From a virus: a stretch of 45,701 bases of DNA. Below, piece after piece: positions 17,687 through 44,320 of the stretch. The notes under the pieces are model-generated. The model saw nothing but the letters and a program-made list of their open reading frames with translations, did not search any database and was not told the DNA's origin. Position 1 is the first letter of the stretch, and each line of letters starts with the position of its first letter. The stretch lies in IMG/VR virus record IMGVR_UViG_3300045988_044939; one strand, given 5' to 3'. Both the position numbers and the translations under genes were made by a program.

Positions 17687-19249
17687 TTGGATGTTGATAG
17701 GATGGCAAACGAGAAAAATTTAATACCAAATTCTGAACGAACTCCGAGCGAACTCCGAGAAATAACAAAAAAAGGCGGTATTAAGTCGGGAGAAGTACGC
17801 CGTCAAAAAAAGACCCTTTCTGAATTAGCAAAAATGATAGCTGAAAATCCTGCCCCGGCTGCTGCAAAGAAGAAACTCGCGAAGATGGGAATATCTGATG
17901 AGGATGCAAACAACAATGCCTGCATTGTAGCTGCCGTATACGATAAAGCTATTAAAGGCAATATGCAGGCAGTAGACAAATGGGAACAGTTGGTAGCTGT
18001 ATCAAAATCAGACGAAAGCAAATATGAACTTCCTGCCAGAGTGCTCGGCAAGGCATTCGTGGATATTAACCGACAGATTAAGCCTAATATCGAATATGTA
18101 TTCGAGGGCGGTCGAGGTGGCCTAAAATCCTCATTCGTAGCTTTTAAAATTATTGAGCTTATCAAGAATAATCCTCAGATGCACGCCTGCATTACAAGAC
18201 AGGTGGCCGGTACTCTGAAAGATTCTGTATACGCTAACATGAAATGGGCTATCAACGAACTTGGACTGATGGAAGAATTTGAATGTAAGGTGTCGCCACT
18301 TGAGATCAAGTATATTAAAACGGGGCAGACAATATACTTCCGTGGTCTGGACGATGAAACCAAACTGAAATCTATTAAGCCAGAGTTTGGATATATTGGA
18401 ATCCTCTGGAAAGAGGAAAAAGATCAAATGAAGGGAGATGCTCAGGAACGTTCTGTTAATCAGTCAGTGCTTCGTGGTGGCGATGAATCCTATGATTTTT
18501 CATCATATAACCCGCCGAAGTCAAAATCAAACTGGGTAAACAGGATCAAACTCACGCCTAACCCGAAAAGAGTTATCCATCATTCGAGTTATCTGGAAGC
18601 TCCGGCGGAGTGGCTCGGACAGAAGTTTATTGACGATGCAGCACATCTGAAAGAAATCAATCCAGAAGCCTATGAGCATGAATACCTGGGTGTTCCGAAT
18701 GGTGACGGTGGAAACGTATTTGAATATCTGGAGATCAGAGATATTACCGATGAAGAGATCAGCCACATGGATCGTGTTTTCGCTGGTGTAGATTATGGAT
18801 GGTACCCGGATGCCTTCTGCTATCTCAGGACCTATTACGATTCTGCCAGAGAGAAGATATATCTGATTGACGAATTGTATGTAAATAAATGGAGCAACTC
18901 CAAGACCGCTGATTGGATCAAGAAAAAAGGCTATGACGATTATACGATGATATGTGATTCTGCGGAGCCTAAATCTGTGAATGACTTCAGAGACGCTGGA
19001 CTTCCTGCCAGAGGAGCAATCAAAGGGCCGGGAAGTATCGAGTATGGTTTTAAATTTTTACAGACAAAGACACTTGTCATTGACCCGAAGCGAACACCGA
19101 ACGCATACAAGGAAATCACAGAATATGAGTATGATCGGGACAAAGAGGGAAATGTAATAAGTGGCTATCCTGATGGAAATGACCACGCAATCTCGGCACT
19201 TAGATACGCTTATGAGCCGTTATTTAACAGGAGAGGTTACAGTGCATAA
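17687..19249 (+). CDS. terL: terminase large subunit (PBSX/Terminase_3 type) with a TerS-like N-terminal extension
   Basis: FEGGRGGLKSSF is the Walker A region of XtmB-type TerL. The first 120 aa or so (NLIPNSERTPSELREITKKGGIKSGEVRRQKK...) resemble small-terminase N-termini. The start may be ATG 17702. Confidence 0.85.
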   Translation: MDVDRMANEKNLIPNSERTPSELREITKKGGIKSGEVRRQKKTLSELAKMIAENPAPAAAKKKLAKMGISDEDANNNACIVAAVYDKAIKGNMQAVDKWEQLVAVSKSDESKYELPARVLGKAFVDINRQIKPNIEYVFEGGRGGLKSSFVAFKIIELIKNNPQMHACITRQVAGTLKDSVYANMKWAINELGLMEEFECKVSPLEIKYIKTGQTIYFRGLDDETKLKSIKPEFGYIGILWKEEKDQMKGDAQERSVNQSVLRGGDESYDFSSYNPPKSKSNWVNRIKLTPNPKRVIHHSSYLEAPAEWLGQKFIDDAAHLKEINPEAYEHEYLGVPNGDGGNVFEYLEIRDITDEEISHMDRVFAGVDYGWYPDAFCYLRTYYDSAREKIYLIDELYVNKWSNSKTADWIKKKGYDDYTMICDSAEPKSVNDFRDAGLPARGAIKGPGSIEYGFKFLQTKTLVIDPKRTPNAYKEITEYEYDRDKEGNVISGYPDGNDHAISALRYAYEPLFNRRGYSA

Positions 19250-20694
19250 TGGGACTTATAACAACACTAAAAAGGTGGTTTAACATGATTTTCAAAAAAC
19301 AAGCTGAAGAGGATTTCAACATCCAGGCAGCAGAATTCCCGGAAATGGAATCGCTGATTAACCGGTGCGCGAACATCTACAGAGGTGTACCAGAATGGCT
19401 AGATGATAAGAACAATATCAAGACAATTAACTTTGCAAAGTCTGTCTGCTCAGAGACAGCACGGCTCGCAACACTGGCGATCGGCATTCAGATAGACGGC
19501 TCCGCAAGGGCTACATGGCTTCAGGAGCAGATTGACAAGGTATATTTCCAGATTCGGCACTGGGTAGAATATGGCTGTGCCTATGGAACGGTATTTATTA
19601 AGCCGAACGGTGAGAGCCTTGACGTATTCACTCCGGTGGATGTGATGATTGTGGATTATGATAATCAGGAGATCAAAGGGATTATATTCAAGGATTCTTA
19701 TACTGTTGGACGGAAATACTATACAAGGCTTGAATATCATAGATTTGTCGAGACTACAATAGATGGCGTGACAACTTATCCGTACTACGTTTCCAACAGA
19801 GTCTATGTGTCAAAATCTCCTCAGAGCATCGGCGATAAGATTGACCTTAAACAGACCAAGTGGGCTGACCTTATGGCAGACACGCCACCAATACTCAAGG
19901 CAAACGGCGAGAAGCTGGACGGACCGTTGTATGGAATGCTGCGGACACCACAGGCGAACAACGTGGATATTAGTGCACCACTTGGACTTCCGATATTTGC
20001 AGAAGCTATTGAGGAACTAAAAGACCTCGACATTGCATACAGCCGTAATGCCGGAGAGATTTTCGATTCTCAGAAGATAGTCCTGGCAGATGATAGACTG
20101 CTGATGCCAAGTGGTACGCCTGTATCAGCCATGTCACCGCGGAGCATGGAGAACAGGCGGAATGAGATGAACTTACCGCACTTTGTTAAGAATGTATTCG
20201 GACAGGACGAGAAAGAGTTTTATCAAGAAATCAATCCACAACTCAACACAGATACCCGTATAAGCGGCATAAATGCCCTTTTAAGCCAGTTAGGGTACAA
20301 GATTGGATTCTCCAACGGGTATTTTGTTTTTAACGAATCTAGCGGTATTCAGACAGCTACGGGAGTAGAAGCAGAGCAGCAGAGAACGGTACAGTTTATC
20401 AAAGACGTTCGAGACAAACTGGAATCCTGCCTGGATGAAGTAATCTATGCATTGAACGTTTATGCTGACCTGTACGGACTTGCACCTGTTGGAACTTATG
20501 AAGTCAATTATGATTTCGGAGATATCTTGTATGTCAGAGAAAATGACCGTGCAAGATGGTGGCAGTATGTAACTACTGGCAAGGTTCCAGCGTGGCTGTA
20601 TTTTGTAAAATTCGAAGGAATGACCGAAGAAGAAGCAAAAGCAATGGTCAAAGAAGCTCAGCCAGACGAGCCAAAACTGTTTGGAGATGAATAG
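19249..20694 (+). CDS. portal protein (SPP1 gp6-like)
   Basis: The call rests on size, position after TerL and overall sequence character. Confidence 0.8.
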   Translation: MGLITTLKRWFNMIFKKQAEEDFNIQAAEFPEMESLINRCANIYRGVPEWLDDKNNIKTINFAKSVCSETARLATLAIGIQIDGSARATWLQEQIDKVYFQIRHWVEYGCAYGTVFIKPNGESLDVFTPVDVMIVDYDNQEIKGIIFKDSYTVGRKYYTRLEYHRFVETTIDGVTTYPYYVSNRVYVSKSPQSIGDKIDLKQTKWADLMADTPPILKANGEKLDGPLYGMLRTPQANNVDISAPLGLPIFAEAIEELKDLDIAYSRNAGEIFDSQKIVLADDRLLMPSGTPVSAMSPRSMENRRNEMNLPHFVKNVFGQDEKEFYQEINPQLNTDTRISGINALLSQLGYKIGFSNGYFVFNESSGIQTATGVEAEQQRTVQFIKDVRDKLESCLDEVIYALNVYADLYGLAPVGTYEVNYDFGDILYVRENDRARWWQYVTTGKVPAWLYFVKFEGMTEEEAKAMVKEAQPDEPKLFGDE

Positions 20695-20696
20695 TT

Positions 20697-21926
20697 ATGT
20701 TAAGCCCAGAATATTTGCGCCGGATAACAGAGGGCAGTGAGCAAATTGCCGAAGAACTGCATCAGTATATCATCTCTGAGATCGTATCGCGGATGATGGC
20801 AAGAATCGGCAGAGGTGAAGATTATATTCTGACCAACGCCGATGCGTGGAGAATCAGAACGCTACAAGAATCCGGTGAGCTACTAGAGGACATTCTGGCA
20901 GAATTATCCAGATATACCAAACGTGAACAGCAGGAACTTCTTGAAGCGTTTGAAGATGCCGGAATCACTGCAATGAACTATGATGACAAGATATACAAGG
21001 CGGCAGGATTAAGCCCTGTGCCGCTCGAACAGTCCCCGGCTATGATAAGGCTCATGGAGCGGAATATGCTTGCAACCATGGGCGAGTGGAAGAACTTTAC
21101 AAGAACCACTGCAAGTGCCGCTCAGAGGCTCTATATCGAGCAGTGTGACCTTGCATATAATCATGTGATGACAGGGGCAGTTGGGTATACGCAAGCCATT
21201 AAAGAGGCGGTTAATAATGTTGTGGGCGATGGTGTGACTGTCACATATCCATCTGGTAGAAAAGACACGATTGAAACAGCAGTTGCACGTTCTGTTAGAA
21301 CTGGCGTAGCACAGGCTACTGGCGATATATCGCTAAAACGCATGGAAGAAATGGACTGGGATTTAGTTCTGGTCAGTGCGCACATAGGAGCCAGAACAGG
21401 CGACGGAGGTCAGAATCCGGGAAATCACTCGTTTTGGCAAGGCAAGATATACTCTCGCTCTGGAAAGAGTAAGAAATTTCCACCGTTTTCATTGACCGGA
21501 TATGGGACAGCAAGCGGACTGTCAGGAGTCAACTGTCGGCATAGTTTCGGAGCCAGTGACGGGGAATTTAATCCTTATGCGGAATTGTCAGCACAGGACA
21601 AAGCCAACAAGGGAAAGCAGTATGAAAAAGAGCAACGACAACGCACTTATGAGCGAAGAATCCGCAAAACGAAGCGTGAAGTTCTTGGATTACAAGCAGG
21701 AGTCGACAATGCACCGAATGAAAAAGCAAAATTCGCACTCCAGCAAGACCTTGACCGGAAGTCTTTTCTTCTCCAAAAACAAAATGCCGCATACAAGGAT
21801 TACTGCAAGCAGAATAACCTGAGGGAACTGCAAGACCGGCTCATGATAGCTAAGTGGAACCGTCAGAACGCCGCAAAAGCCAGAGGAGCGGCAAGACGAT
21901 ATAAAACAGCAAAGGGGATTGACTGA
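20697..21926 (+). CDS. head morphogenesis protein (Mu F / SPP1 gp7-like)
   Basis: Position after portal; the NCRHSF motif is typical of Phage_Mu_F. Confidence 0.75.
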   Translation: MLSPEYLRRITEGSEQIAEELHQYIISEIVSRMMARIGRGEDYILTNADAWRIRTLQESGELLEDILAELSRYTKREQQELLEAFEDAGITAMNYDDKIYKAAGLSPVPLEQSPAMIRLMERNMLATMGEWKNFTRTTASAAQRLYIEQCDLAYNHVMTGAVGYTQAIKEAVNNVVGDGVTVTYPSGRKDTIETAVARSVRTGVAQATGDISLKRMEEMDWDLVLVSAHIGARTGDGGQNPGNHSFWQGKIYSRSGKSKKFPPFSLTGYGTASGLSGVNCRHSFGASDGEFNPYAELSAQDKANKGKQYEKEQRQRTYERRIRKTKREVLGLQAGVDNAPNEKAKFALQQDLDRKSFLLQKQNAAYKDYCKQNNLRELQDRLMIAKWNRQNAAKARGAARRYKTAKGID

Positions 21927-22306
21927 TGGATAGATGGGAATATTACAATCCGAATCCTGCCGGGAATCGAGTCGGAGATTGTGCTGTCCGGGCAATATGT
22001 AAAGCAACCGGGTTCGACTGGGAAACGGTATTCGCTGGATTAATGATACAGGCGTGCGCTCTGTCAGATATGCCAAGTGCAAATTATGTCTGGGGAGCGT
22101 ATCTCTATAAGCATGGATACAGGCGCAAGTTGATAGAACAGTCAGAGCGATATATCTATACAGTCAATGACTTTTGCACAGACCATCCAACAGGTACATA
22201 CATCCTCTGCATAGACGGTCATGTAGTGACGGTACAAGATGGCAAATATTTTGACACATGGGATTCCGGTAATGAGATTCCGGTATATTACTGGGAAAAG
22301 GAGTAA
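21926..22306 (+). CDS. hypothetical protein with possible Cys/His peptidase-like motifs
   Basis: NPNPAGNRVGDCAVRAI ... IDGHVV. The family is recognised only loosely. Confidence 0.5.
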   Translation: MDRWEYYNPNPAGNRVGDCAVRAICKATGFDWETVFAGLMIQACALSDMPSANYVWGAYLYKHGYRRKLIEQSERYIYTVNDFCTDHPTGTYILCIDGHVVTVQDGKYFDTWDSGNEIPVYYWEKE

Positions 22307-22310
22307 CTAA

Positions 22311-22616
22311 ATGAGCATATCAGAATTTGTACAGATTTTCCTCTCGATCTGCGGAGGGGTGTCCATTGTCGGAGGGGCGGTGGCTGTAATCTTTAAGTGG
22401 ATTACCCCGGCGTTTCGGCTTAATAAGCGAGTAGAGACACTGGAAGAACATGATAGACGAGATTATGAAAGCCTTCGAAGAATCGCAGAACGTGATTCAT
22501 TGATTCTGGAAGTGTTATCAACCATGTTGGACAGCCAGATCAGCGGAAATAACGTCGAGGAATTAAAAAAAACAAAACAGAAGCTCACAAATTATCTTGC
22601 GCAGAATCAACGTTAA
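22311..22616 (+). CDS. membrane-anchored coiled-coil protein
   Basis: N-terminal TM is IFLSICGGVSIVGGAVAVIF. Confidence 0.55.
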   Translation: MSISEFVQIFLSICGGVSIVGGAVAVIFKWITPAFRLNKRVETLEEHDRRDYESLRRIAERDSLILEVLSTMLDSQISGNNVEELKKTKQKLTNYLAQNQR

Positions 22617-22639
22617 TTGCATTAATAAGGGGTATGCTC

Positions 22640-22840
22640 ATGAAATTATATGTGTTCACTAAGAAAGATATAGACAGGTTCTTGACAGAGTGTAATTTTA
22701 CACCGGATGAAGAAAGATTGTTCCGGCTGAGGTGTCAGGAACACACTCTTGAATACTGCGCTGAACAGATGAATGTGAGTATATCCACGGCAAAACGATT
22801 AAGCCGGAGGGTGAATAATAAAATAATTAAAGTGTGTTAA
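22640..22840 (+). CDS. small sigma-70 region-4-like HTH protein (candidate late regulator)
   Basis: LEYCAEQMNVSISTAKRLSRRVNNKI resembles region-4/LuxR-type HTH. ATG 22640 is better spaced from AAGGGG than ATG 22634. Confidence 0.5.
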   Translation: MKLYVFTKKDIDRFLTECNFTPDEERLFRLRCQEHTLEYCAEQMNVSISTAKRLSRRVNNKIIKVC

Positions 22841-22851
22841 GATGACAATAA

Positions 22852-22888
22852 AAGTCCCCGGGACTATCTCCCAGGGGCTTATTTTTAT
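22852..22888. terminator. bidirectional terminator between convergent genes
   Basis: AAG(T)CCCC / GGGGCTT stem, with T-runs readable on both strands. Confidence 0.6.
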
Positions 22889-23058
22889 CTTTCCGTTTCG
22901 AGCCAGATTTCGCACTGCTCGCCGTCCTCTTCGTAGCTGACAACTTCGCCAGCTTCCAGGCGTTCCCGCCAGTCTTCCGGGTAGTTCTCTGGAATATAGA
23001 TGCAGTTATTTTCGTATACTGCATTTCCTCTTGCTTCTGAAATCATATATTCTGCCAT
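22885..23058 (-). CDS. 57-aa strongly acidic protein (third gene of the leftward cassette)
   Basis: ATG (complement of 23056-23058) lies 8 nt after AAAGGAGGAAAA. Product is MAEYMISEARGNAVYENNCIYIPENYPEDWRERLEAGEVVSYEEDGEQCEIWLETER. Not in the ORF track; the track ORF 22827..23024 is a junk frame. Confidence 0.65.
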   Translation of the reverse strand: MAEYMISEARGNAVYENNCIYIPENYPEDWRERLEAGEVVSYEEDGEQCEIWLETER

Positions 23059-23081
23059 GTTCTTTTCCTCCTTTTATTCTT

Positions 23082-23252
23082 CTATTTTTTAATATCTTCT
23101 TTTACAATTCTCTCAAGCAAACTAATAACATACTCTGGAGGATTACGTTTACCACCCTCCCAGTTTTCAATTGTTCTTTTAGGAATTTTGTATTTATCGG
23201 AAAAAGCCTGTTGGCTTAATCCAGAAAATGAACGAATTTCTTTGAACTTCAT
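23082..23252 (-). CDS. 56-aa XRE-type HTH protein (Aca-like or antitoxin-like)
   Basis: MKFKEIRSFSGLSQQAFSDKYKIPKRTIENWEGGKRNPPEYVISLLERIV. ATGA overlap with the upstream gene. Confidence 0.7.
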   Translation of the reverse strand: MKFKEIRSFSGLSQQAFSDKYKIPKRTIENWEGGKRNPPEYVISLLERIVKEDIKK

Positions 23253-23608
23253 TCTTCTTCCTCCTCTTCACCATCTTTTAACGCGTCCAACCTTTCCTGG
23301 TTTATTCGATTCATTTCAGCAATCATAAATTTGATTGCTTCCACAAATTTTTCACCTTTTGGGCTGTCCACTTTTGCATACATGTAGCCCACACTGTTTA
23401 CGGAAAAAATCGTATCTTTTACTTTGGCAAATTCTCCATATTTCCCTTCGCTGGTTCCAATAGTCCAATATTTGCCACCATCAACAGGAATACTCAACCA
23501 TCCCTGGTCGTTAGGCGTTAGACAAGCTTGAACTTTTTCTACAGCCTTATGACCATATCTGTAAATCTCATTCTGTCCGGCGTTAATATAACGATAATCC
23601 TTATACAT
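23249..23608 (-). CDS. 119-aa acidic protein with poly-Glu tail (first gene of the leftward cassette)
   Basis: ATG after AAGGAGGAACAAAAAT. No family recognised. Confidence 0.65.
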   Translation of the reverse strand: MYKDYRYINAGQNEIYRYGHKAVEKVQACLTPNDQGWLSIPVDGGKYWTIGTSEGKYGEFAKVKDTIFSVNSVGYMYAKVDSPKGEKFVEAIKFMIAEMNRINQERLDALKDGEEEEEE

Positions 23609-23646
23609 ATTTTTGTTCCTCCTTAATTTTATATCTTCCCTGTTTC

Positions 23647-23682
23647 TGATATTATAATATCACTCAATGAGTGACATGTCAA
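23647..23682 (-). promoter_or_regulatory. strong leftward sigma-A promoter with two overlapping palindromic operators
   Basis: On the minus strand: TTGACA (complement of 23677-23682), 17 nt spacer, TATTAT (complement of 23654-23659). Palindromes are TGATATTATAATATCA (23647-23662) and TCACTCAATGAGTGA (23660-23674). Confidence 0.7.
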
Positions 23683-23779
23683 TACTTTTTTGACACTTTT
23701 TTGAACTTTTTAGATTGGTACATCTATGCAAAAATATAGCTATAGAAAGTCATAGAATAAGTCATAGGAGGTGTACGAG

Positions 23780-24250
23780 ATGGCATTATATAACAATCCT
23801 TATCAATATAGTTTTGGCGTTCCGGGGCAGATGAACCAATTTCAGCAACAGTCTGTCCAGATGCCAGCTCAACCAGTACAGCAACCCCAGCAGAATAGCA
23901 ATGGTATCCTGTGGGTATCTGGAGAAGTAGGTGCAAAATCCTATCTGGTAGCACCCGGAACAAGTGTTTTACTGATGGACAGTGAAAGCGAAAAGTTCTA
24001 CATAAAATCCACAGACGTTTCCGGTATGCCACAGCCATTACGGACGTTTGAATACCACGAGGTAGGCACTCAGATGCCACCTAAACAGCCTGTTCAGAAC
24101 ATGGACAATAAATACGTCACAAGACAGGAATACGACAATTTAAAGGGCAAATACGAAGCTATCATAAACCGATTGAATTCTTTTTCTGAACCTGTTAGAG
24201 CTAATACCGTACAGGAATCAGCAGCCAAGGGAGGAAATGCAGATGAGTAA
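23780..24250 (+). CDS. Q/P-rich protein with conserved GILWVSGEVGAKSYLVAPGTSVLLMD core
   Basis: ATG 23780 after TAGGAGGTG. Low-complexity Q-rich ends. Confidence 0.6.
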   Translation: MALYNNPYQYSFGVPGQMNQFQQQSVQMPAQPVQQPQQNSNGILWVSGEVGAKSYLVAPGTSVLLMDSESEKFYIKSTDVSGMPQPLRTFEYHEVGTQMPPKQPVQNMDNKYVTRQEYDNLKGKYEAIINRLNSFSEPVRANTVQESAAKGGNADE

Positions 24251-24464
24251 TCCATTGTTTAATGCACTTGGTGGTGGGATGCCACAGGGAAACGGACCAA
24301 TGCAGATGATACAGCAGTTTATGCAGTTTAAGCAGAATTTTAAGGGAGACCCGAAGGAAGAAGTCCAGAAGATGTTACAGTCTGGGAAGATTTCCCAACA
24401 GCAACTTAATCAGGTTCAGCAGATGGCAGGACAGTTTCAACACATGCTGAAAGGAATGAAATAG
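24237..24464 (+). CDS. 75-aa Q/M-rich protein
   Basis: Overlaps the previous gene end, after GGGAGG. Confidence 0.55.
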   Translation: MQMSNPLFNALGGGMPQGNGPMQMIQQFMQFKQNFKGDPKEEVQKMLQSGKISQQQLNQVQQMAGQFQHMLKGMK

Positions 24465-24516
24465 TACATTACAATCTGGCCAGATTGATGTAAATACACA
24501 AAAAGGAGATTATATT

Positions 24517-25293
24517 ATGGATGGAAATTTAACAGCATCAGACGTTGCTCTTTTGACCGGGAACAATAGAAATGACGGCATGTTTGGCGGAGATGGCAGC
24601 TGGTGGATTATTGTTTTATTCATTTTTGCTTTCTTCGGATGGGGAAACAACGGCTGGGGTAATAACGGAAACGGCGGTGGATATGCAGCCACAGCAGCTA
24701 CTCAGGCAGATATTCAGAGAGGATTTGACAATTCCGCAGTAATCAGCAAACTTGACGGAATCAATAGCGGCCTCTGTGATGGCTTTTATGCCATGAATAA
24801 TGGCATGCTTACCGGATTCAATGGAATCAACACCAATATCATGCAGACTGGCTTCGGCATCCAGCAGGCGATCAATGCTGATACTGTAGCGAATATGCAG
24901 AATACCAATGCACTTCAGGCACAGCTTGCGAACTGCTGTTGTGAAACCAGGGAAGCTATCCAGGGCGTAAACTACAATATGGCGCAGAACACCTGCGCAT
25001 TGCAGAACACGATGAACAGCAACACAAGAGACATTATCGACAGCCAGAACGCAGGGACAAGAGCGATTCTTGACTATCTCTGCAATGAAAAGATTTCTAA
25101 CCTGCAGGCCGAGAACAATGATCTCAGACGTGCCGCTTCTCAGGATCGCCAGAGCGCACTGCTCACAACTGCAATGGCTTCTCAGACGCAGCAGCTCATT
25201 AATGCAATCAATCCAGCGCCGATCCCGGCATATCAGGTCCCTAATCCGAACACATATTACGGATGCGGATGTAACACTGGATGCAATTGCTGA
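24517..25293 (+). CDS. G/N/Q/C-rich membrane protein (YjcZ-like Gly-rich TM N-terminus, CxC-rich C-terminus)
   Basis: AAAGGAG RBS. Features are GGDGSWWIIVLFIFAFFGWGNNGWGNNGNGGG, ANCCCE and a C-terminal YYGCGCNTGCNC. Confidence 0.65.
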   Translation: MDGNLTASDVALLTGNNRNDGMFGGDGSWWIIVLFIFAFFGWGNNGWGNNGNGGGYAATAATQADIQRGFDNSAVISKLDGINSGLCDGFYAMNNGMLTGFNGINTNIMQTGFGIQQAINADTVANMQNTNALQAQLANCCCETREAIQGVNYNMAQNTCALQNTMNSNTRDIIDSQNAGTRAILDYLCNEKISNLQAENNDLRRAASQDRQSALLTTAMASQTQQLINAINPAPIPAYQVPNPNTYYGCGCNTGCNC

Positions 25294-25405
25294 TAACTTC
25301 ATATCGAGAGTATCTTTCGATTGATTTCGGATGTCGGCTTATGCCGTATTACACAGAGGGGCAGGCTGAGACCTGTCCTTTTGTGATATGAAAGGGGTAA
25401 AAATT

Positions 25406-25828
25406 ATGGCAGAATTTACAAGTGTAGCTGCTCAGACTGTAGCAGCTAATGGAAACGTAGTATTTTCAAATACAGCAGTTAAGGGTTCTAACTGCATTCA
25501 GCACAGAGAGGGAAGTGGAATCATCACTCTGAGAGGATTGACTAACCAGTGCAAGGCTAGATTCTTTGTGGATTTTTCTGGTAATATCGCAATTCCAACA
25601 GGTGGAACTGTCGGAGCTATCTCTTTGGCGATTGCAATCTCTGGCGAACCTGTATTATCTTCACAGATGATTTCCACGCCGGCGGCAGTAGACCAGTACA
25701 ACAATGTGTCCTCTGGCATTTATATTGACGTACCTCGCGGATGTTGCGTTAACATCGCGGTAGAGAACACTAGCGATCAGGCAATTTCTGTTGCAAACGC
25801 AAACATTGTTGTAACCAGAGAAGCGTAG
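25406..25828 (+). CDS. beta-rich protein resembling BclA-C-terminal/C1q-TNF-like jelly-roll domains
   Basis: ATG 25406 lies 8 nt after AAAGGGG. The pattern of alternating hydrophobic strands (ITLRGL.., FFVDFSGNIAIP.., ISLAIAISGEPV.., IYIDVPRGCCVNIAVEN.., ANIVVTR) resembles exosporium BclA-C-like domains. Similarity was judged by eye only. Confidence 0.55.
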   Translation: MAEFTSVAAQTVAANGNVVFSNTAVKGSNCIQHREGSGIITLRGLTNQCKARFFVDFSGNIAIPTGGTVGAISLAIAISGEPVLSSQMISTPAAVDQYNNVSSGIYIDVPRGCCVNIAVENTSDQAISVANANIVVTREA

Positions 25829-25839
25829 GAGGTGCAGTT

Positions 25840-26394
25840 ATGAGAGATATTAAGGATTTATGCGCAAGAATCGAAGACGAGCTTTCCAAAATTGCTGATA
25901 ATGGACTGACCACTGGAAATCTGGATATGACGTATAAGCTGATTGACATGTACAAAGATATCAAGAATACACAGTACTGGGACAAAAAAGTGGAGTACTA
26001 TAACACTGTCCTTGATGAGATGCGTGGCGGCTATAATGACGATTACAGCGAACGCGGAAGAAAGCGTGACAGCATGGGGAGATACAGTGCAAATGACGGC
26101 AGAATGATGCCGGATTACGACTGGGGCAGTTCTTATGCCAGACGCGGTGAGCATTATGTCAGAGGACATTACAGCCGCTCTGATGGACGAGATGCTTATG
26201 ACGACTATATGACACAGAAACAGAGCTATCGTTCCGGCAAATCTGAGGACTGCAAGAGGAAGATGCTTGCCGCTCTGGAAGAACATCTCGACGAACTCAC
26301 TACAGAAATGAGCGATATGTCCAAGGACGCAGAGTGCCGGGAGGAACGCGATCTTGTTAAAAGATATGTGGAAAAGCTCCGGAATATGCTCTAA
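25840..26394 (+). CDS. charged R/D/Y/S-rich protein
   Basis: TAGGAGGTG RBS. N-terminal helical IEDELSKIADNGLTTGNLDMTYKLIDMYKDIK, then RD/RS/Y-rich low complexity. Confidence 0.6.
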   Translation: MRDIKDLCARIEDELSKIADNGLTTGNLDMTYKLIDMYKDIKNTQYWDKKVEYYNTVLDEMRGGYNDDYSERGRKRDSMGRYSANDGRMMPDYDWGSSYARRGEHYVRGHYSRSDGRDAYDDYMTQKQSYRSGKSEDCKRKMLAALEEHLDELTTEMSDMSKDAECREERDLVKRYVEKLRNML

Positions 26395-26401
26395 TTGGCT
26401 A

Positions 26402-26441
26402 AAACATGTACCACAACTTTTTGAAGAGTCTGTGGTAAAAT
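26402..26441 (+). promoter_or_regulatory. late-promoter-like motif, copy 2
   Basis: AAACATGTACCACAACTTTT (26402-26421), 11 nt, then TGGTAAAAT (26433-26441). Same spacing as copy 1. Confidence 0.6.
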
Positions 26442-26447
26442 GTATTC

Positions 26448-27034
26448 ATAAGGAAGATTCGTAAGTGATTACAGTCACTTGACATAGATGCATTTTTTCA
26501 TTGATTCCTCCTTTCTTGGGTACGTGTCCTTAATAGAAAATGCAGTGTTTAGCTAACACAAGAAGCATGAGGTTGAAAAGCGAATGCAATTTCCGACACG
26601 TACCATTGCCGTTAGTGCATGGCGGCATACCTCCTTGTGAGCATATAACTGAATAGTGGAATCCAACCCGTGCAGAGGTGCGCGACAGTATAGGCGGTGT
26701 TGACGTAGCCCGAAACGTCTCGTGTTTAGGCATAGCACGTTAAATACCTTGCTAACCCGGGAATCCGGGTTATGTGGAAAGTACGTTAATGGTAGACTGA
26801 CAGGGTCGCTCCCTGGGTTCCGGTTCGATTCCGGGCTTTCCGCTTTGATTCGGTTAGAATTACGCTGTCTGTATACAGGCGGTTTATGATTCGGCTGAAT
26901 TTGCATAGAAGCAGTTGTGCAGAAACCAATGATATCAATGGAAGAACAGAAACTACTTGCGACTATGCTCAAACAACCCATGGGAAAAGGTTATTGCTTA
27001 TCCTGTTGACTGGAGGCCGGTCCGAAAAGCATAA
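26448..27034 (+). ncRNA. large structured noncoding RNA candidate (ROOL/GOLLD-class), boundaries approximate
   Basis: About 0.8 kb has no RBS-bearing ORF and starts after a promoter motif. Exact helices include 26519-26528/26595-26604 (10 bp), 26754-26760/26765-26771 (7 bp), 26903-26908/26963-26968 and 26463-26468/26475-26480. It is flanked and interrupted by tRNA-like elements. Confidence 0.55.
26775..26843 (+). other. tRNA-like element embedded in the noncoding region
   Basis: Acceptor TGGAAAG / CTTTCCG and canonical T-arm TCCGG-TTCGATT-CCGGG. The D-arm is weak, and the anticodon arm CAGGG-TCGCT-CCCTG has only a 5-nt loop with a very short variable region. Confidence 0.35.
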
Positions 27035-27108
27035 TGGAATGTAGCTCAGTTGGAAGAGCGGAGAGCACATAGCTCTTGACGTCGCAGGTTCGAATCCTGC
27101 CTTTCCGT
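27035..27108 (+). tRNA. tRNA or tRNA-like (anticodon CAU if the loop is 7 nt), atypical
   Basis: Canonical TA-GCTC-AGTTGGAA-GAGC D-arm and GCAGG-TTCGAAT-CCTGC T-arm. The acceptor TGGAATG/CTTTCCG has one U-U mismatch and a U1-G72 pair. The anticodon loop CACATAG has A33 and a pairable C32-G38. No encoded CCA. Confidence 0.55.
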
Positions 27109-27185
27109 TTACCTTGCCAGTGGTCTAACTGGCTTAATCCATTTACCTGCGGCGGCAGGTCAATAAACACGACCAGGAGGATGTT

Positions 27186-27818
27186 ATGCAGAAACTTATT
27201 GACACATTAAAATCATTTGGAATTGAGATCCCGGAGGACAAGCAGGCGGATGTTAAAAAGGCACTCTCTGAGCATTATAAGAATGCCAAAGAAGTAGCAA
27301 AAACCCTGTCGAAAGTCGAGGGAGAACGTGATGGCTGGAAAGAACGTGCCGAGACAGCAGAAGAAACCTTAAAAGGTTTTGACGGTATCGACCCGGCAAA
27401 TGTTAAAAGCGAGTTAGAGACTTGGAAACAGAAGGCAGCAGATGCAGAGAAAGAGTTTAATGCAAAAATCTACGACCGTGATTTCTCAGACGCTCTGAAA
27501 GCGGCACTCGACGATGTTAAGTTTTCCAGCGAAGCAGCAAAGAAATCAGTCATGGCAGATATTAAAGAAGCAGGTCTTAAGCTGAAAGATGGTAAAATCC
27601 TTGGATTAAATGACCTGATCGAACAGATGAAGCAGTCTGACGCATCCGCTTTTGTAGATGAATCTCAGCAGCAGGCTCAGCAGAACCAGGCAAGATTTAC
27701 CACTCATGTTGGACAGCAGCAGACACCGGGAAGCATGACAAAGAAGGAAATCGAAGCGATCAAAGACCCGTCCGAGAGACAGGCTGCAATTGCTCAGAAT
27801 ATCCAGTTATTCCAGTGA
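27186..27818 (+). CDS. scaffolding protein (DUF4355-like)
   Basis: Helical, charged, immediately upstream of the major capsid gene, with CAGGAGG RBS. Confidence 0.75.
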   Translation: MQKLIDTLKSFGIEIPEDKQADVKKALSEHYKNAKEVAKTLSKVEGERDGWKERAETAEETLKGFDGIDPANVKSELETWKQKAADAEKEFNAKIYDRDFSDALKAALDDVKFSSEAAKKSVMADIKEAGLKLKDGKILGLNDLIEQMKQSDASAFVDESQQQAQQNQARFTTHVGQQQTPGSMTKKEIEAIKDPSERQAAIAQNIQLFQ

Positions 27819-27896: not shown

Positions 27897-29054
27897 ATGG
27901 CAGCAAAAGCTAATCTTATTATGACAAATGATATCCAGGTCACGGCACGTGAGATTGACTTTGTAACCAGATTCGAAAGAAACTGGGAGCACTTGCGTGA
28001 GATTCTTGGTATCATGCGTCCAATCAAAAAGACACCCGGAGCGGTTCTTAAATCAAAATACGCAGAAGGCACATTGCAGGACGGAAATGTTAAAGAGGGC
28101 GAAGAAATCCCTTACAGCAAATTCACTGTAAAAGAAAAGCCTTATGCAGAAATGAGCATTGAGAAGTACGCAAAGGCTGTATCTATCGAAGCAATCAAGG
28201 ATCACGGTTATGAGAACGCTGTTCAGATGACCGATGACGAATTCCTTTTCCAGCTTCAGACCAATGTTACCGGCAGATTCTATGATTATCTGAAAACCGG
28301 TACACTTACTTCCACAGAAACCACATTCCAGATGGCTCTGGCAATGGCTAAGGGTCGTGTTGAAAACAAATTCAAGCAGATGCACAGAAATGTGACTGGT
28401 GTTGTTGGATTTGTGAATATTCTGGACGTATATGAATACCTCGGAGCAGCTGAGATCACTATTCAGAACCAGTTCGGATTCCAATACATGAAGGATTTCA
28501 TGGGATTCAATACCATCTTCCTGTTATCTGACAGTGAGATCCCACGTGGACAGGTTATCGCTACACCTGTTGAGAACATCGTTCTTTACTATGTGGATCC
28601 AAACGAATCTGATTTCGCAAGAGCAGGCCTTGTATACACTGTATCTGGCGAGACAAATCTGATCGGATTCCATACACAGGGCAACTACCACACGGCAGTG
28701 TCTGAAGCGTTCGCGGTTATGGGACTTACTCTTTTTGCGGAGTACATTGATGCAATTGCAGTAATTACCATTGATGAGACACCAGCACTTGGCACTCTGG
28801 TAGTAACATCTGCGGAAGGAACAGCAACTGGTGATACAAAAATCACTGTAAATCCGGCTAAGGAAAACTCCAACAACGTATACAAATACAAAGTTGCGGC
28901 AGACGCAGTAACTGTCGGATATGGACAGAATCTCAGAAACTGGACTTCTTGGGACGGAAAAGCTGATGTTAAAGCAGCAACCGGACAGAAGATTACAGTA
29001 GTTGAGTGTGACGGAACATACAAAGCACTGAATGCCGGAAGTGCGACTCTGTAA
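27897..29054 (+). CDS. major capsid protein (HK97-fold type) with C-terminal Ig-like extension
   Basis: The call rests on position after the scaffold, size and sequence character. The C-terminal 90 aa or so (LVVTSAEGTATGDTKITVNPA...KITVVECDGTYKAL) looks like a Big_2-type domain. Confidence 0.8.
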   Translation: MAAKANLIMTNDIQVTAREIDFVTRFERNWEHLREILGIMRPIKKTPGAVLKSKYAEGTLQDGNVKEGEEIPYSKFTVKEKPYAEMSIEKYAKAVSIEAIKDHGYENAVQMTDDEFLFQLQTNVTGRFYDYLKTGTLTSTETTFQMALAMAKGRVENKFKQMHRNVTGVVGFVNILDVYEYLGAAEITIQNQFGFQYMKDFMGFNTIFLLSDSEIPRGQVIATPVENIVLYYVDPNESDFARAGLVYTVSGETNLIGFHTQGNYHTAVSEAFAVMGLTLFAEYIDAIAVITIDETPALGTLVVTSAEGTATGDTKITVNPAKENSNNVYKYKVAADAVTVGYGQNLRNWTSWDGKADVKAATGQKITVVECDGTYKALNAGSATL

Positions 29055-43141: not shown

Positions 43142-43166
43142 CGGTTAGTCACAGTTAGTCACAAAC
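43142..43166. repeat. tandem TTAGTCACA repeat, copy set 2 (overlaps the integrase stop)
   Basis: CGGTTAGTCACAGTTAGTCACAAAC. Confidence 0.75.
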
Positions 43167-44320
43167 GGGACTTTTATCTTTTCAATCTCCGTCCGGAGTT
43201 CTTCTAGGGTTCTGTGACCATACACAGCATTCGTGACATCGTTCCCAAACGAATGACCCAGCATCCTCTTCCGGTCGTTCTCCCGGACGCCGTATTTTTC
43301 ACACAGAGTAGAAAAGGTATGTCGACAATCGTGCGGCGTGTGCTTCGGGTTGCCGGTTATCCCCAATCGTTCCAGTGTAGGGTAAAACAGAGCGTTTCGG
43401 TGCTGCGTCTGGGAATAGATGCAGAGTTTACCGTTTTGCGTCAGGACCTTGCTCTTTGCAAACTCATATATGGCCGGATGGATTGGAACGATCCTGTCTT
43501 TTCCGGCTGCGGTCTTGATGCCACCCTGAAAATATCTCTCTTCAAGATTGGTCGTAAGCTTCAGGACCTCGCCAATTCTCCATCCAGAGTAACACATGAT
43601 TAGAATGAGCTGCGCTTCTGGATCATCGGTGTTATTCCAAAGGATTTGCAATTCCTCATCCGAAAAAGGTGTGCCATGTTCCGTATCATCATTTGCGTTA
43701 ACTTTTACATATAAAGCCTTGTTTTCCGACACAATTTCTGAATAAATGGCATACTTATACATCTGCTTAAAGAGGGTTAATATAATTGCTTTGCTTTGCT
43801 TCTTAAGAGTACATTTATCTATTACGTCTTGTAAATCGGGGGCTTTTAAATTTTCAAATGTGCGATTGTGTAATGCTTTACAGTTTGAGTAAGCTGTTTT
43901 GTATGATTCCATCGAGCTATAAGACGCTTTTGTCCCGTCTGGAAATTTCCATGCATAGAATTGCTCATATACCTCTGAGAACGTCAATTTGTGCGTTTCC
44001 GGGTGCTTTTCCTCTGTGCCCTTAAATGTATTGTAGTCTGACAGAATACGTCCTATAAGGGCGTCTGCGTCCGTTGTAGGGGCAATCTCAAGTTCCTTTT
44101 CCATACCCGGCTTGTACGTCCCAGCTTTGTAAGCTGTCAGAACGGCGAACCCTTTCAGATAGTCGTCAACGTAGCAGATCGCAGGCGGACGGATCGCTTT
44201 CCCTGTTGCGTCCAGCGTTGCCGGTGGGTGCACTGCATAGCAGTTTCTTCGACCCTTGCCAAGATAGCGGATAGAGCCGAAACTGTTTGGCAATTTCGGG
44301 TACTTCTTTCTTTTTGCCAT
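43145..44320 (-). CDS. int: tyrosine recombinase / phage integrase
   Basis: C-terminal HDCRHTFSTL...MLGHS...AVYGH carries the R-H-R-Y catalytic pattern. AAGGAGGAAAA RBS. Confidence 0.9.
   Translation of the reverse strand: MAKRKKYPKLPNSFGSIRYLGKGRRNCYAVHPPATLDATGKAIRPPAICYVDDYLKGFAVLTAYKAGTYKPGMEKELEIAPTTDADALIGRILSDYNTFKGTEEKHPETHKLTFSEVYEQFYAWKFPDGTKASYSSMESYKTAYSNCKALHNRTFENLKAPDLQDVIDKCTLKKQSKAIILTLFKQMYKYAIYSEIVSENKALYVKVNANDDTEHGTPFSDEELQILWNNTDDPEAQLILIMCYSGWRIGEVLKLTTNLEERYFQGGIKTAAGKDRIVPIHPAIYEFAKSKVLTQNGKLCIYSQTQHRNALFYPTLERLGITGNPKHTPHDCRHTFSTLCEKYGVRENDRKRMLGHSFGNDVTNAVYGHRTLEELRTEIEKIKVPFVTNCD

Follow-up and report, generated by a model that had tools for sequence, protein, structure and literature searches.

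A putative anti-defence cassette with its own promoter and candidate repressor in a hypervariable slot of a human-gut phage lineage

Introduction

What is a small operon that reads leftward doing among the rightward late genes of a gut phage? The question is raised by the IMG/VR virus record IMGVR_UViG_3300045988_044939, a stretch of 45,701 nucleotides (hereafter, the window) that represents a temperate siphovirus-like element of the human gut with a Blautia-like host. Within its head module, three short genes (orfA, orfB and orfC), the second of which encodes a helix-turn-helix (HTH) protein, lie together on the minus strand. A preliminary description of the sequence had viewed this cassette as a candidate anti-defence (acr-aca-like), toxin–antitoxin or exclusion locus. 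Here, we compared the cassette with the corresponding site in sister phages and analyzed its genes, its promoter and the genes that take its place. It is probably an acr-aca-type accessory operon (a moron) that is transcribed on its own and represses itself, and that has a role in anti-defence. The phage lineage is very common in human-gut viromes, and its closest cultured relative, Blautia phage Montmirail (58% identity in the portal protein), infects Blautia.

Results

An accessory insertion in a hypervariable slot

The cassette and its signals are located in the window as follows:

22837–23765, minus strand: whole accessory cassette, absent from the sister phage L001
23249–23608, minus strand: orfA, 119 aa, acidic, with a poly-Glu tail EEEEEE (open reading frame (ORF) list)
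23082–23252, minus strand: orfB, 56-aa XRE-family HTH protein (ORF list, Pfam HTH_3/HTH_19)
22885–23058, minus strand: orfC, 57 aa (ORF list)
23654–23682, minus strand: sigma-A-type promoter (promoter scan)
23657–23677: candidate operator of the alpha type (see below), ATGTCAC-N7-GTGATAT, 21 bp, filling the promoter spacer
23647–23662: AT-rich perfect palindrome TGATATTATAATATCA, over the -10 region and the transcription start
22846–22876, minus strand: intrinsic terminator closing the cassette (terminator scan)

The bounds of the cassette were set by comparison with the sister phage L001 (MT835739), whose site is empty. In a blastn alignment, positions 20684–22836 and 23766–26437 of the window match this phage, in which ∼78 bp replaces the 929 bp between them. 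In a second sister phage, L002 (MT839401), orfA and orfB are kept at 94% identity, and the place of orfC is taken by two other genes under a further copy of the promoter. The right-hand flanking gene led to 591 or more related stretches in IMG/VR. The sister-locus sample (n=82) included 80 further loci collected with this gene, and the slot was measured from the gene for a 68-aa sigma-region-4-like protein to that for a Q-rich protein. The slot was empty (91–159 bp) in 34 of the 82 loci and occupied (663–2861 bp) in the other 48, among which about 30 ORF arrangements could be distinguished. The cassette is an accessory insertion, cleanly present or absent among its sisters, and the slot is hypervariable; varied cargo at a fixed site among related phages, a hallmark of acr-aca loci, was observed here.

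Nearly all occupied sites (47 of 48) encode a small DNA-binding regulator, the remaining one being an unrelated plus-strand insertion. An orfB-type HTH was found in 43, either as a free protein (54–59 aa) or as the C-terminal domain of 230–256-aa proteins, and in four a 76-aa ribbon-helix-helix (RHH) protein took its place. The window's own cargo is rare in the slot: among the 82 loci, orfA occurs only in the window, L002 and L209, and orfC is rarer still. Most slot cargo proteins gave no family match. The empty site of L001 holds a terminator hairpin and then a -10-like element; the slot is a natural boundary between transcription units, and a backwards unit would thus be tolerated there.

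It should be noted that many otherwise unrelated first-gene products of the slot have an N-terminal module of ∼40 aa in common, MK(K)YNxSxIMKxAWxxVKK…ISxxLKxAWxEAK, which matches phrog_28198 and phrog_8305 (both function-unassigned) and is joined to differing C-terminal domains (for example, L080 3760–4203, L002 1216–1536 on the reverse strand, and L118 6629–6925).

Architecture and transcription signals of the operon

The three-gene leftward operon of the preliminary description was recovered in the ORF list with all genes on the minus strand, together with the coupling of the first two by an ATGA (a 4-nt overlap of orfA and orfB). AGGAGG is present upstream of each gene. The computed charges of the products differ markedly: the isoelectric point (pI) is 5.0 for OrfA and 4.05 for OrfC (net charge -12.5), whereas that of OrfB is 9.75.

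The near-consensus sigma-A promoter reported previously could also be confirmed. It consists of a -35 TTGACA (23682–23677), a 17-nt spacer, a TG (23662–23661) and a -10 TATTAT (23659–23654), which match the consensus at 11 of 12 positions, with the TG as an extended -10. Three promoter-like sites were observed in the 1.5-kb region compared with 4.1 expected, a count that is not significant alone; the weight of the cassette promoter rests on the quality and placement of the site, not on the count. Downstream of the genes, the terminator hairpin (22876–22856) has eight pairs and is followed by a T-run on the minus strand. It had been described as bidirectional, but only the minus-strand terminator was called, the plus-strand stem being broken by a C·A mismatch.

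Two perfect palindromes had been noted at the promoter. Both are exact, but only the one in the spacer behaves like an operator; it is the core (23660–23674, TCACTCAATGAGTGA) of the 21-bp candidate operator, with which the AT-rich palindrome has the half-site GTGATAT in common. A third palindrome, TGACATGTCA (23672–23681), overlaps the -35. Across the window, we counted 10 perfect palindromes whose arms were 7 nt or longer, compared with 6.4 ± 2.4 in Markov shuffles; palindromes are not rare in the window, and their existence by itself is therefore weak evidence. One of them is held to be functional because of the sister-phage comparison presented below. The AT-rich palindrome was also considered as a second operator and rejected: it is lost in promoters of the beta type (GTGGTATTATATAATCATC), and the same 16-mer recurs in unrelated promoters of Firmicute phages, whose spacers contain other palindromes. 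Judging from this distribution, it is probably an extended -10 plus leader element and not an operator.

The lysogeny switch region of the phage (1094–1190), located between the CI-like repressor gene and a rightward gene for a 98-aa protein, contains a TGATAATATATCA palindrome and three copies of the repeat AACTCACA. The rightward (early) promoter of this region, TTGACATATAACTCACATCGTGATATTATAA (1135–1176), is ∼76% identical to the cassette promoter. The similarity might indicate that the phage CI repressor controls the cassette as well, but it lies in the -35/-10 scaffold and does not include the ACTCACA repeats of the switch.

Co-variation of regulators and operators

An exact-match scan of IMG/VR with the AT-rich palindrome returned many loci of the same phage lineage. 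The promoter/operator block of ∼85 bp, AGTTCAAAAAAGTGTCAAAAAAGTATTGACATATCACYCRWTGAGTGATATTATAATATCAGAAAG, is kept in more than 20 sister loci and lies upstream of at least five unrelated first genes; within the cassettes of L002, L031, L170 and L213 it is duplicated. On the basis of regulator and spacer, four types could be distinguished:

alpha HTH (…GKRNPPEYV…): spacer TCAC-N7-GTGR in 17 of 17 loci, plus five with a TTGACT -35
beta HTH (…GKSKCPDYV…): spacer with the perfect 21-bp palindrome ATACCACCAAATTGGTGGTAT or single-base variants in 19 of 19 loci, plus L159
gamma HTH: spacer CCACGCATTGCGTGG in L173
RHH regulator: spacer GTGC-N6-GCAC in four loci

All four types have the flanking promoter sequence in common, and within each type the cargo located between promoter and regulator varies. 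Operator and regulator types change together in about 40 loci, without exception at primary promoters. The lone deviation is an internal second promoter in L213, in which an alpha operator precedes a frameshifted AcrIC5-like gene and a gamma HTH gene; the same cassette also encodes an alpha HTH. The fact that the spacer palindrome switches with the regulator type supports binding of the regulator to the spacer repeat and autorepression. There is strong, though indirect, comparative support for a regulator that would bind this repeat and repress the promoter, and in the window this putative repressor would be OrfB.

The 56-aa product of orfB had been recognized as an XRE-family HTH protein, and it indeed scored above the cut-off of Pfam HTH_3 (23.2 bits; cut-off 23), with HTH_19 just below (E 8e-7, 29.3 bits; cut-off 30.2). 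The NCBIfam search matched it to the C-terminal domain of TIGR03830, that is, the MqsA C-terminal domain (E 1.8e-5). A PDB sequence search returned HigA-2 (E 0.013–0.034; 5jaa at E 0.034), Atu1735 and HTH proteins of the multiprotein-bridging-factor type (Atu1735 being an uncharacterized protein); Aca1, Aca2 and AcrIIA1 were not among the matches at E<0.1. As far as this PDB search extends, the orfB-type HTH probably represents a new family of Aca-type regulators, in which three or more operator specificities can be distinguished. These natural operator/repressor variants provide a ready set of orthogonal pairs for studying the evolution of Aca-type specificity.

Anti-CRISPR-related cargo of sister cassettes

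Further investigation of the cargo genes revealed relatives of CRISPR-Cas inhibitors and components. A 67-aa protein of L173 belongs to Pfam PF22147 (AcrIC5; 35.2 bits, cut-off 27, E 1.4e-8), aligns weakly to the solved AcrIC5 (7yhr) and is followed directly by an orfB-type HTH. This gene and the HTH gene are a textbook acr-aca pair. A regulator gene and an acr-family gene in one operon are seen in L173; the cargo of the window, orfA and orfC, does not encode known Acrs. The L213 cassette carries a frameshifted AcrIC5-like copy behind an alpha-type promoter. AcrIC5 homologues occur in gut Gram-positive bacteria (PMC10732046; PMC10651486), and inhibition of type I-C has been demonstrated for a homologue encoded by a Bifidobacterium prophage (PMC10651486); a validated RacrIC1 is located just downstream of an AcrIC5 homologue in Bifidobacterium (PMC10651486). 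In L213 (cassette 1716–1776), a small hairpin, CCTG-TATCGG-CAGG, followed by ATAAGGATGAAAGG, separates the frameshifted AcrIC5-like gene from the gamma HTH gene; the two elements together bear a loose likeness to a type I-C repeat with its stem-loop and handle.

In four cassettes, the last gene encodes a solo homologue of type I-B Cas5 with 229 aa (TIGR01895, E 7e-20, below the trusted cut-off); related proteins in databases are annotated as Cas5b or Cas5t and contain PF09704. A solo Cas5 with 56% identity was also found in an unrelated phage lineage of 75–80 kb, behind a small HTH_26 gene, and in other members of that lineage the same HTH_26-led slot holds an orfC homologue (P0154). Since Cas5 and orfC are found at the same slots, they appear to be alternative cargo in two independent lineages. 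The solo Cas5 genes of the two lineages (229–230 aa), each behind a small HTH gene, and the hairpins next to them are located as follows:

L148, L154, L171 and L174, cassette 1443–2132, then 2154–2195: solo Cas5b and hairpin
L242, 5312–6004 and 6040–6160: solo Cas5 and hairpins

The stems of the hairpins 3' of solo Cas5 differ (CAGTTAC-GAAT-GTAACTG in L148; CATCAT-TTTT-ATGATG and, with one mismatch, CAGGC-GTTT-TGCCTG in L242), and the 3' flank AATGTAAA is common to them. Among the 48 cassettes, the element of hairpin and AATGTAAA occurs only in the four with Cas5. Its flank resembles the 3'-terminal part of type I-B CRISPR repeats of clostridia, and the hairpins might be repeat-like RNA decoys acting with Cas5. 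They had no match to CRISPR-DR families in Rfam, and an exact-match scan of metagenome contigs revealed no CRISPR arrays. In the 75–80-kb phages, a conserved gene-free stretch lies downstream of the orfC/Cas5 slot (L018 3700–4000; L242 6230–6470); it has its own TTGACA promoter and the shared motif GCTATC…AACGAG…GGAACTCAGGAGGGGC, and it could correspond to a small RNA or a leader that has escaped annotation.

Distribution and predicted structure of OrfA and OrfC

A word-indexed search yielded 315 clusters of OrfA homologues, all at about 59% identity or more, and only 48 were obtained when 1.84 billion representatives were searched with a profile; OrfA is a compact family. Its matches in species-representative genomes were all in Clostridia-type metagenome-assembled genomes, apart from one Gastranaerophilaceae bin. 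Across homologues, the acidic C-terminal tail is kept as a feature, not as a sequence. The AlphaFold2 model of OrfA (pLDDT 91.3) combines short strands at the N-terminus, one helix and a four-stranded sheet with a long helix at the C-terminus. The only family-scan match of OrfA, a weak one to a PHROG for a virion structural protein (E 0.0075), was discarded as noise.

The genomic contexts of orfA are diverse. It stands alone upstream of a small terminase gene, overlaps a gene for a 198-aa HTH_3 protein after a lysis module, and in L233 precedes another HTH of this type (123 aa). In L008–L012, an integrated element, the next gene downstream of orfA encodes a PIF1-like helicase, and an SSB gene is close by. 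The OrfA domain also forms the C-terminus (residues 351–452) of P0181, a DnaG-type primase of 456 aa (L228 1613–2983). This primase has a CHC2 zinc ribbon and Toprim and comes from small contigs with resolvase and Fic genes. Homologues in L004–L007, L008–L012, L232 and L235 have no adjacent HTH, and altogether orfA is partnered by three different HTH proteins or by none.

For OrfC, homologues at 65% identity or more form 45 clusters, often with an acidic tail, and the AlphaFold2 model (pLDDT 87.9) is a beta-hairpin, a helix and a second beta-hairpin. The gene always lies behind that of a small DNA-binding protein, which is XRE in the window, RHH in L025 and HTH_26 in L018; in L018 it is also behind a TTGACA-17-TATAAT promoter with a spacer palindrome. 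The association of orfC with three regulator families, and of orfA with three HTH proteins or none, is an acr pattern. Both proteins may be regarded as candidate anti-defence effectors, OrfC possibly as a nucleic-acid mimic. An identity of OrfC with AcrIIA22 was considered and rejected, there being no PDB sequence match. Hypervariable islands with AcrIIA22 in clostridial prophages follow a similar logic at a different locus and with a different protein (PMC8545432).

Genomic neighborhood of the cassette

Other features of the window are listed below:

715–1077: CI-like repressor
17687–19249: TerL
19249–20694: portal
20697–21926: MuF-like/minor capsid protein 2 (Phage_min_cap2, E 2e-74)
Up to 22840: three small genes, the last for the 68-aa sigma-region-4-like protein
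23771/23780–24250: Q-rich 156-aa protein, function unassigned (phrog_21718), right-hand neighbor of the cassette
From 23771: five function-unassigned genes
About 26400–27185: non-coding gap with RAGATH-21 RNA and tRNA-Met
27186–27818: scaffolding protein (phrog_194)
27897–29054: major head protein
43145–44320: integrase

The MuF-like and scaffold genes, between which the preliminary description had placed the cassette, are both farther away: the gene for the sigma-region-4-like protein adjoins it on the left, with the MuF-like gene ending at 21926, and that for the Q-rich phrog_21718 protein on the right, with the scaffolding gene starting at 27186. In Montmirail, the scaffolding gene follows the minor head gene almost directly, and the region 21926–27186 is therefore accessory relative to that phage. 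This 5.2 kb of function-unassigned genes in the head module encodes, among others, a 126-aa protein (phrog_3754), a 101-aa protein, the 68-aa sigma-region-4-like protein, the Q-rich 156-aa protein and a Gly/Asn/Cys-rich protein of 258 aa. Just 5' of the scaffolding gene, a non-coding gap of ∼750 bp contains a RAGATH-21 RNA motif (75.3 bits; cut-off 70.3) and tRNA-Met(CAT), at 26519–26604 and 27034–27109. A 142-aa minus-strand ORF in this region (26553–26981) was considered as a second backwards gene and rejected, as it had no family match and the region holds the RAGATH-21 RNA and the tRNA.

Discussion

At the level of the locus, several lines of evidence agree with the earlier suggestion of an acr-aca-like anti-defence cassette, namely its presence or absence as a unit, the hypervariable slot, the AcrIC5-family and Cas5b cargo, and the co-variation of operators and regulators; this agreement does not extend to the function of OrfA and OrfC themselves. 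In the reading that we consider probable, the host sigma-A promoter would fire when phage DNA enters the cell or from the prophage, and one transcript would yield OrfA, OrfB and OrfC and end at the cassette's own terminator. Expression would thus be early or lysogenic. OrfB, probably as a dimer, would bind the 21-bp repeat ATGTCAC-N7-GTGATAT, and because this repeat fills the spacer between -35 and -10, binding would shut the promoter. OrfA and OrfC would be the cargo and would most likely inhibit host defence; the leading candidate targets are the CRISPR-Cas systems of Lachnospiraceae, type I-B or I-C. OrfC could act as a highly acidic mimic and OrfA via its compact new-fold domain with an acidic tail.

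Several observations weigh against this reading. As in the preliminary description, OrfA and OrfC could not be recognized: Foldseek searches with the AlphaFold2 models gave no match at E<0.3 in the PDB for either protein, nor in BFVD for OrfA; neither belonged to an Acr, anti-defence or other family in Pfam (E≤1), NCBIfam, PHROGs or PADLOC; and PDB sequence searches returned no match of note for either. Since both models are confident and yet lack a fold match, no function can be read from structure. The primase fusion and the helicase neighbor of orfA point to DNA-replication partners and not to Cas proteins. Moreover, the HTH gene lies in the middle of the operon here rather than in the classic order of acr followed by aca. 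Promoter, cargo and regulator are physically linked, and the partition of operators among regulators could be partly inherited rather than selected. Finally, guilt by association can mislead, as such slots also gather genes with other roles.

Three other explanations have to be weighed against an acr-aca-type operon. The cassette could be a moron expressed by the lysogen, in which low and steady amounts of OrfA and OrfC from the autoregulated promoter block other phages or mobile elements by exclusion or defence. Its own promoter and terminator, its position between late transcription units of a temperate phage (with an integrase and a CI-like repressor), its presence or absence among sisters and the resemblance of its promoter architecture to the early promoter at 1135–1176 are all consistent with this explanation. 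We nevertheless consider it unlikely, as the translations of orfA and orfC contain no hydrophobic segment evident on inspection, PADLOC gave no defence match for either, and the sole recognizable cargo of the slot is anti-CRISPR-related (AcrIC5 family and solo Cas5b). OrfA could, on the other hand, be a replication or recombination accessory, such as a helicase- or single-stranded DNA-binding module, with the cassette tuning phage DNA metabolism. The OrfA domain at the C-terminus of the DnaG-type primase, the homologue beside a PIF1-like helicase gene with SSB nearby in L008–L012, and the conserved acidic C-terminal tail, which is comparable to the acidic tails of SSB and T7 gp2.5, all suggest such a role. 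However, the slot in which orfA lies is hypervariable and dispensable, and it is remote from the replication module; orfA is present there in only three of the 82 loci and is exchangeable for an AcrIC5-family gene under the same promoter, and helicase binding would be equally compatible with inhibition of a defence helicase-nuclease. A replication role appears quite improbable for this cassette.

The explanation with the lowest probability, and a highly improbable one in our opinion, is a type II toxin–antitoxin module with a higBA/mqsRA layout, in which OrfA would be the toxin and OrfB the overlapping XRE antitoxin. The ATGA overlap of orfA with a downstream XRE HTH gene fits this layout, as do the best named matches of OrfB, the MqsA C-terminal domain and HigA-2. 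The option, which the preliminary description had also put forward, is nevertheless disfavored because OrfA is acidic, has no match to a toxin family or structure and occurs elsewhere without an HTH; in addition, the HTH has many unrelated partners, so that pairing is not obligate, and the 56-aa OrfB comprises just a DNA-binding domain and is too short to contain a toxin-neutralizing one as well.

Returning to the acr-aca-type operon, a more far-reaching version of it is that OrfA and OrfC are two new-fold anti-CRISPR or anti-defence families, that OrfA may seize a helicase-type defence component (Cas3 or another helicase-nuclease) via the module that it has in common with primases of mobile elements, that the orfB-type HTH is a new family of Aca-type repressors with at least three operator types, and that the slot is rich in new I-B and I-C inhibitors; taken jointly, we regard these claims as a tentative and rather doubtful proposal. 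If they were true, the roughly two dozen unassigned cargo families of the slot and the solo Cas5b with its repeat-like hairpins would be an abundant source of I-B and I-C inhibitors in human-gut Lachnospiraceae. To our knowledge, few anti-defence proteins are known for Clostridia, and a fixed slot with a recognizable promoter/repressor module offers a simple way to harvest them. The principle of the locus would not surprise a specialist; its value lies in the abundant gut-phage slot, the clean series of regulators and operators, and the solo Cas5b. OrfA and OrfC, for their part, have compact, confidently predicted orphan folds.

Comparison with known systems

In the higBA/mqsRA systems, as in the cassette, the first gene overlaps an XRE HTH gene, and OrfB resembles the DNA-binding domains of MqsA and HigA; unlike these systems, the cassette shows no toxin homology, no obligatory pairing and an HTH without a neutralizing domain. 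Lambdoid morons are also dispensable insertions at transcription-unit boundaries with their own promoter and terminator and in the opposite orientation, whereas the cassette additionally has its own repressor and a hypervariable cargo of several genes.

Fusions of an Acr with an HTH of the AcrIIA1 type, known from Listeria phages, repress their own promoter. Similarly, the 230–256-aa proteins of sister cassettes carry the same HTH at the C-terminus and are encoded second in the operon; in the window, however, the HTH is free, and the domain order of the fused form is reversed relative to AcrIIA1. With AcrIC5 (PF22147; 7yhr) the connection is through L173 and L213, which carry a member of the family under the same regulatory module; the L173 protein is rich in acidic residues, like OrfC, although OrfA and OrfC gave no AcrIC5 match even at E≤1.

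The acr-aca operons are compared here through the Aca1 loci of Mu-like Pseudomonas phages such as JBD30 and through Aca2 of Pectobacterium phage ZF40. The cassette differs from them in that OrfB resembles the MqsA C-terminal domain and HigA, that the HTH is mid-operon or variable in position and in many sisters fused to an N-terminal domain of ∼190 aa, and that neither cargo protein of the window is a known Acr. On the other hand, both have a strong promoter of the constitutive type with inverted repeats, a small HTH protein encoded within the operon, and small, often acidic cargo that varies among sisters. The acr-aca loci of Mu-like Pseudomonas phages also sit among head genes, and insertion among head-morphogenesis genes, present in some relatives and absent from others, is likewise what we have observed for this cassette.

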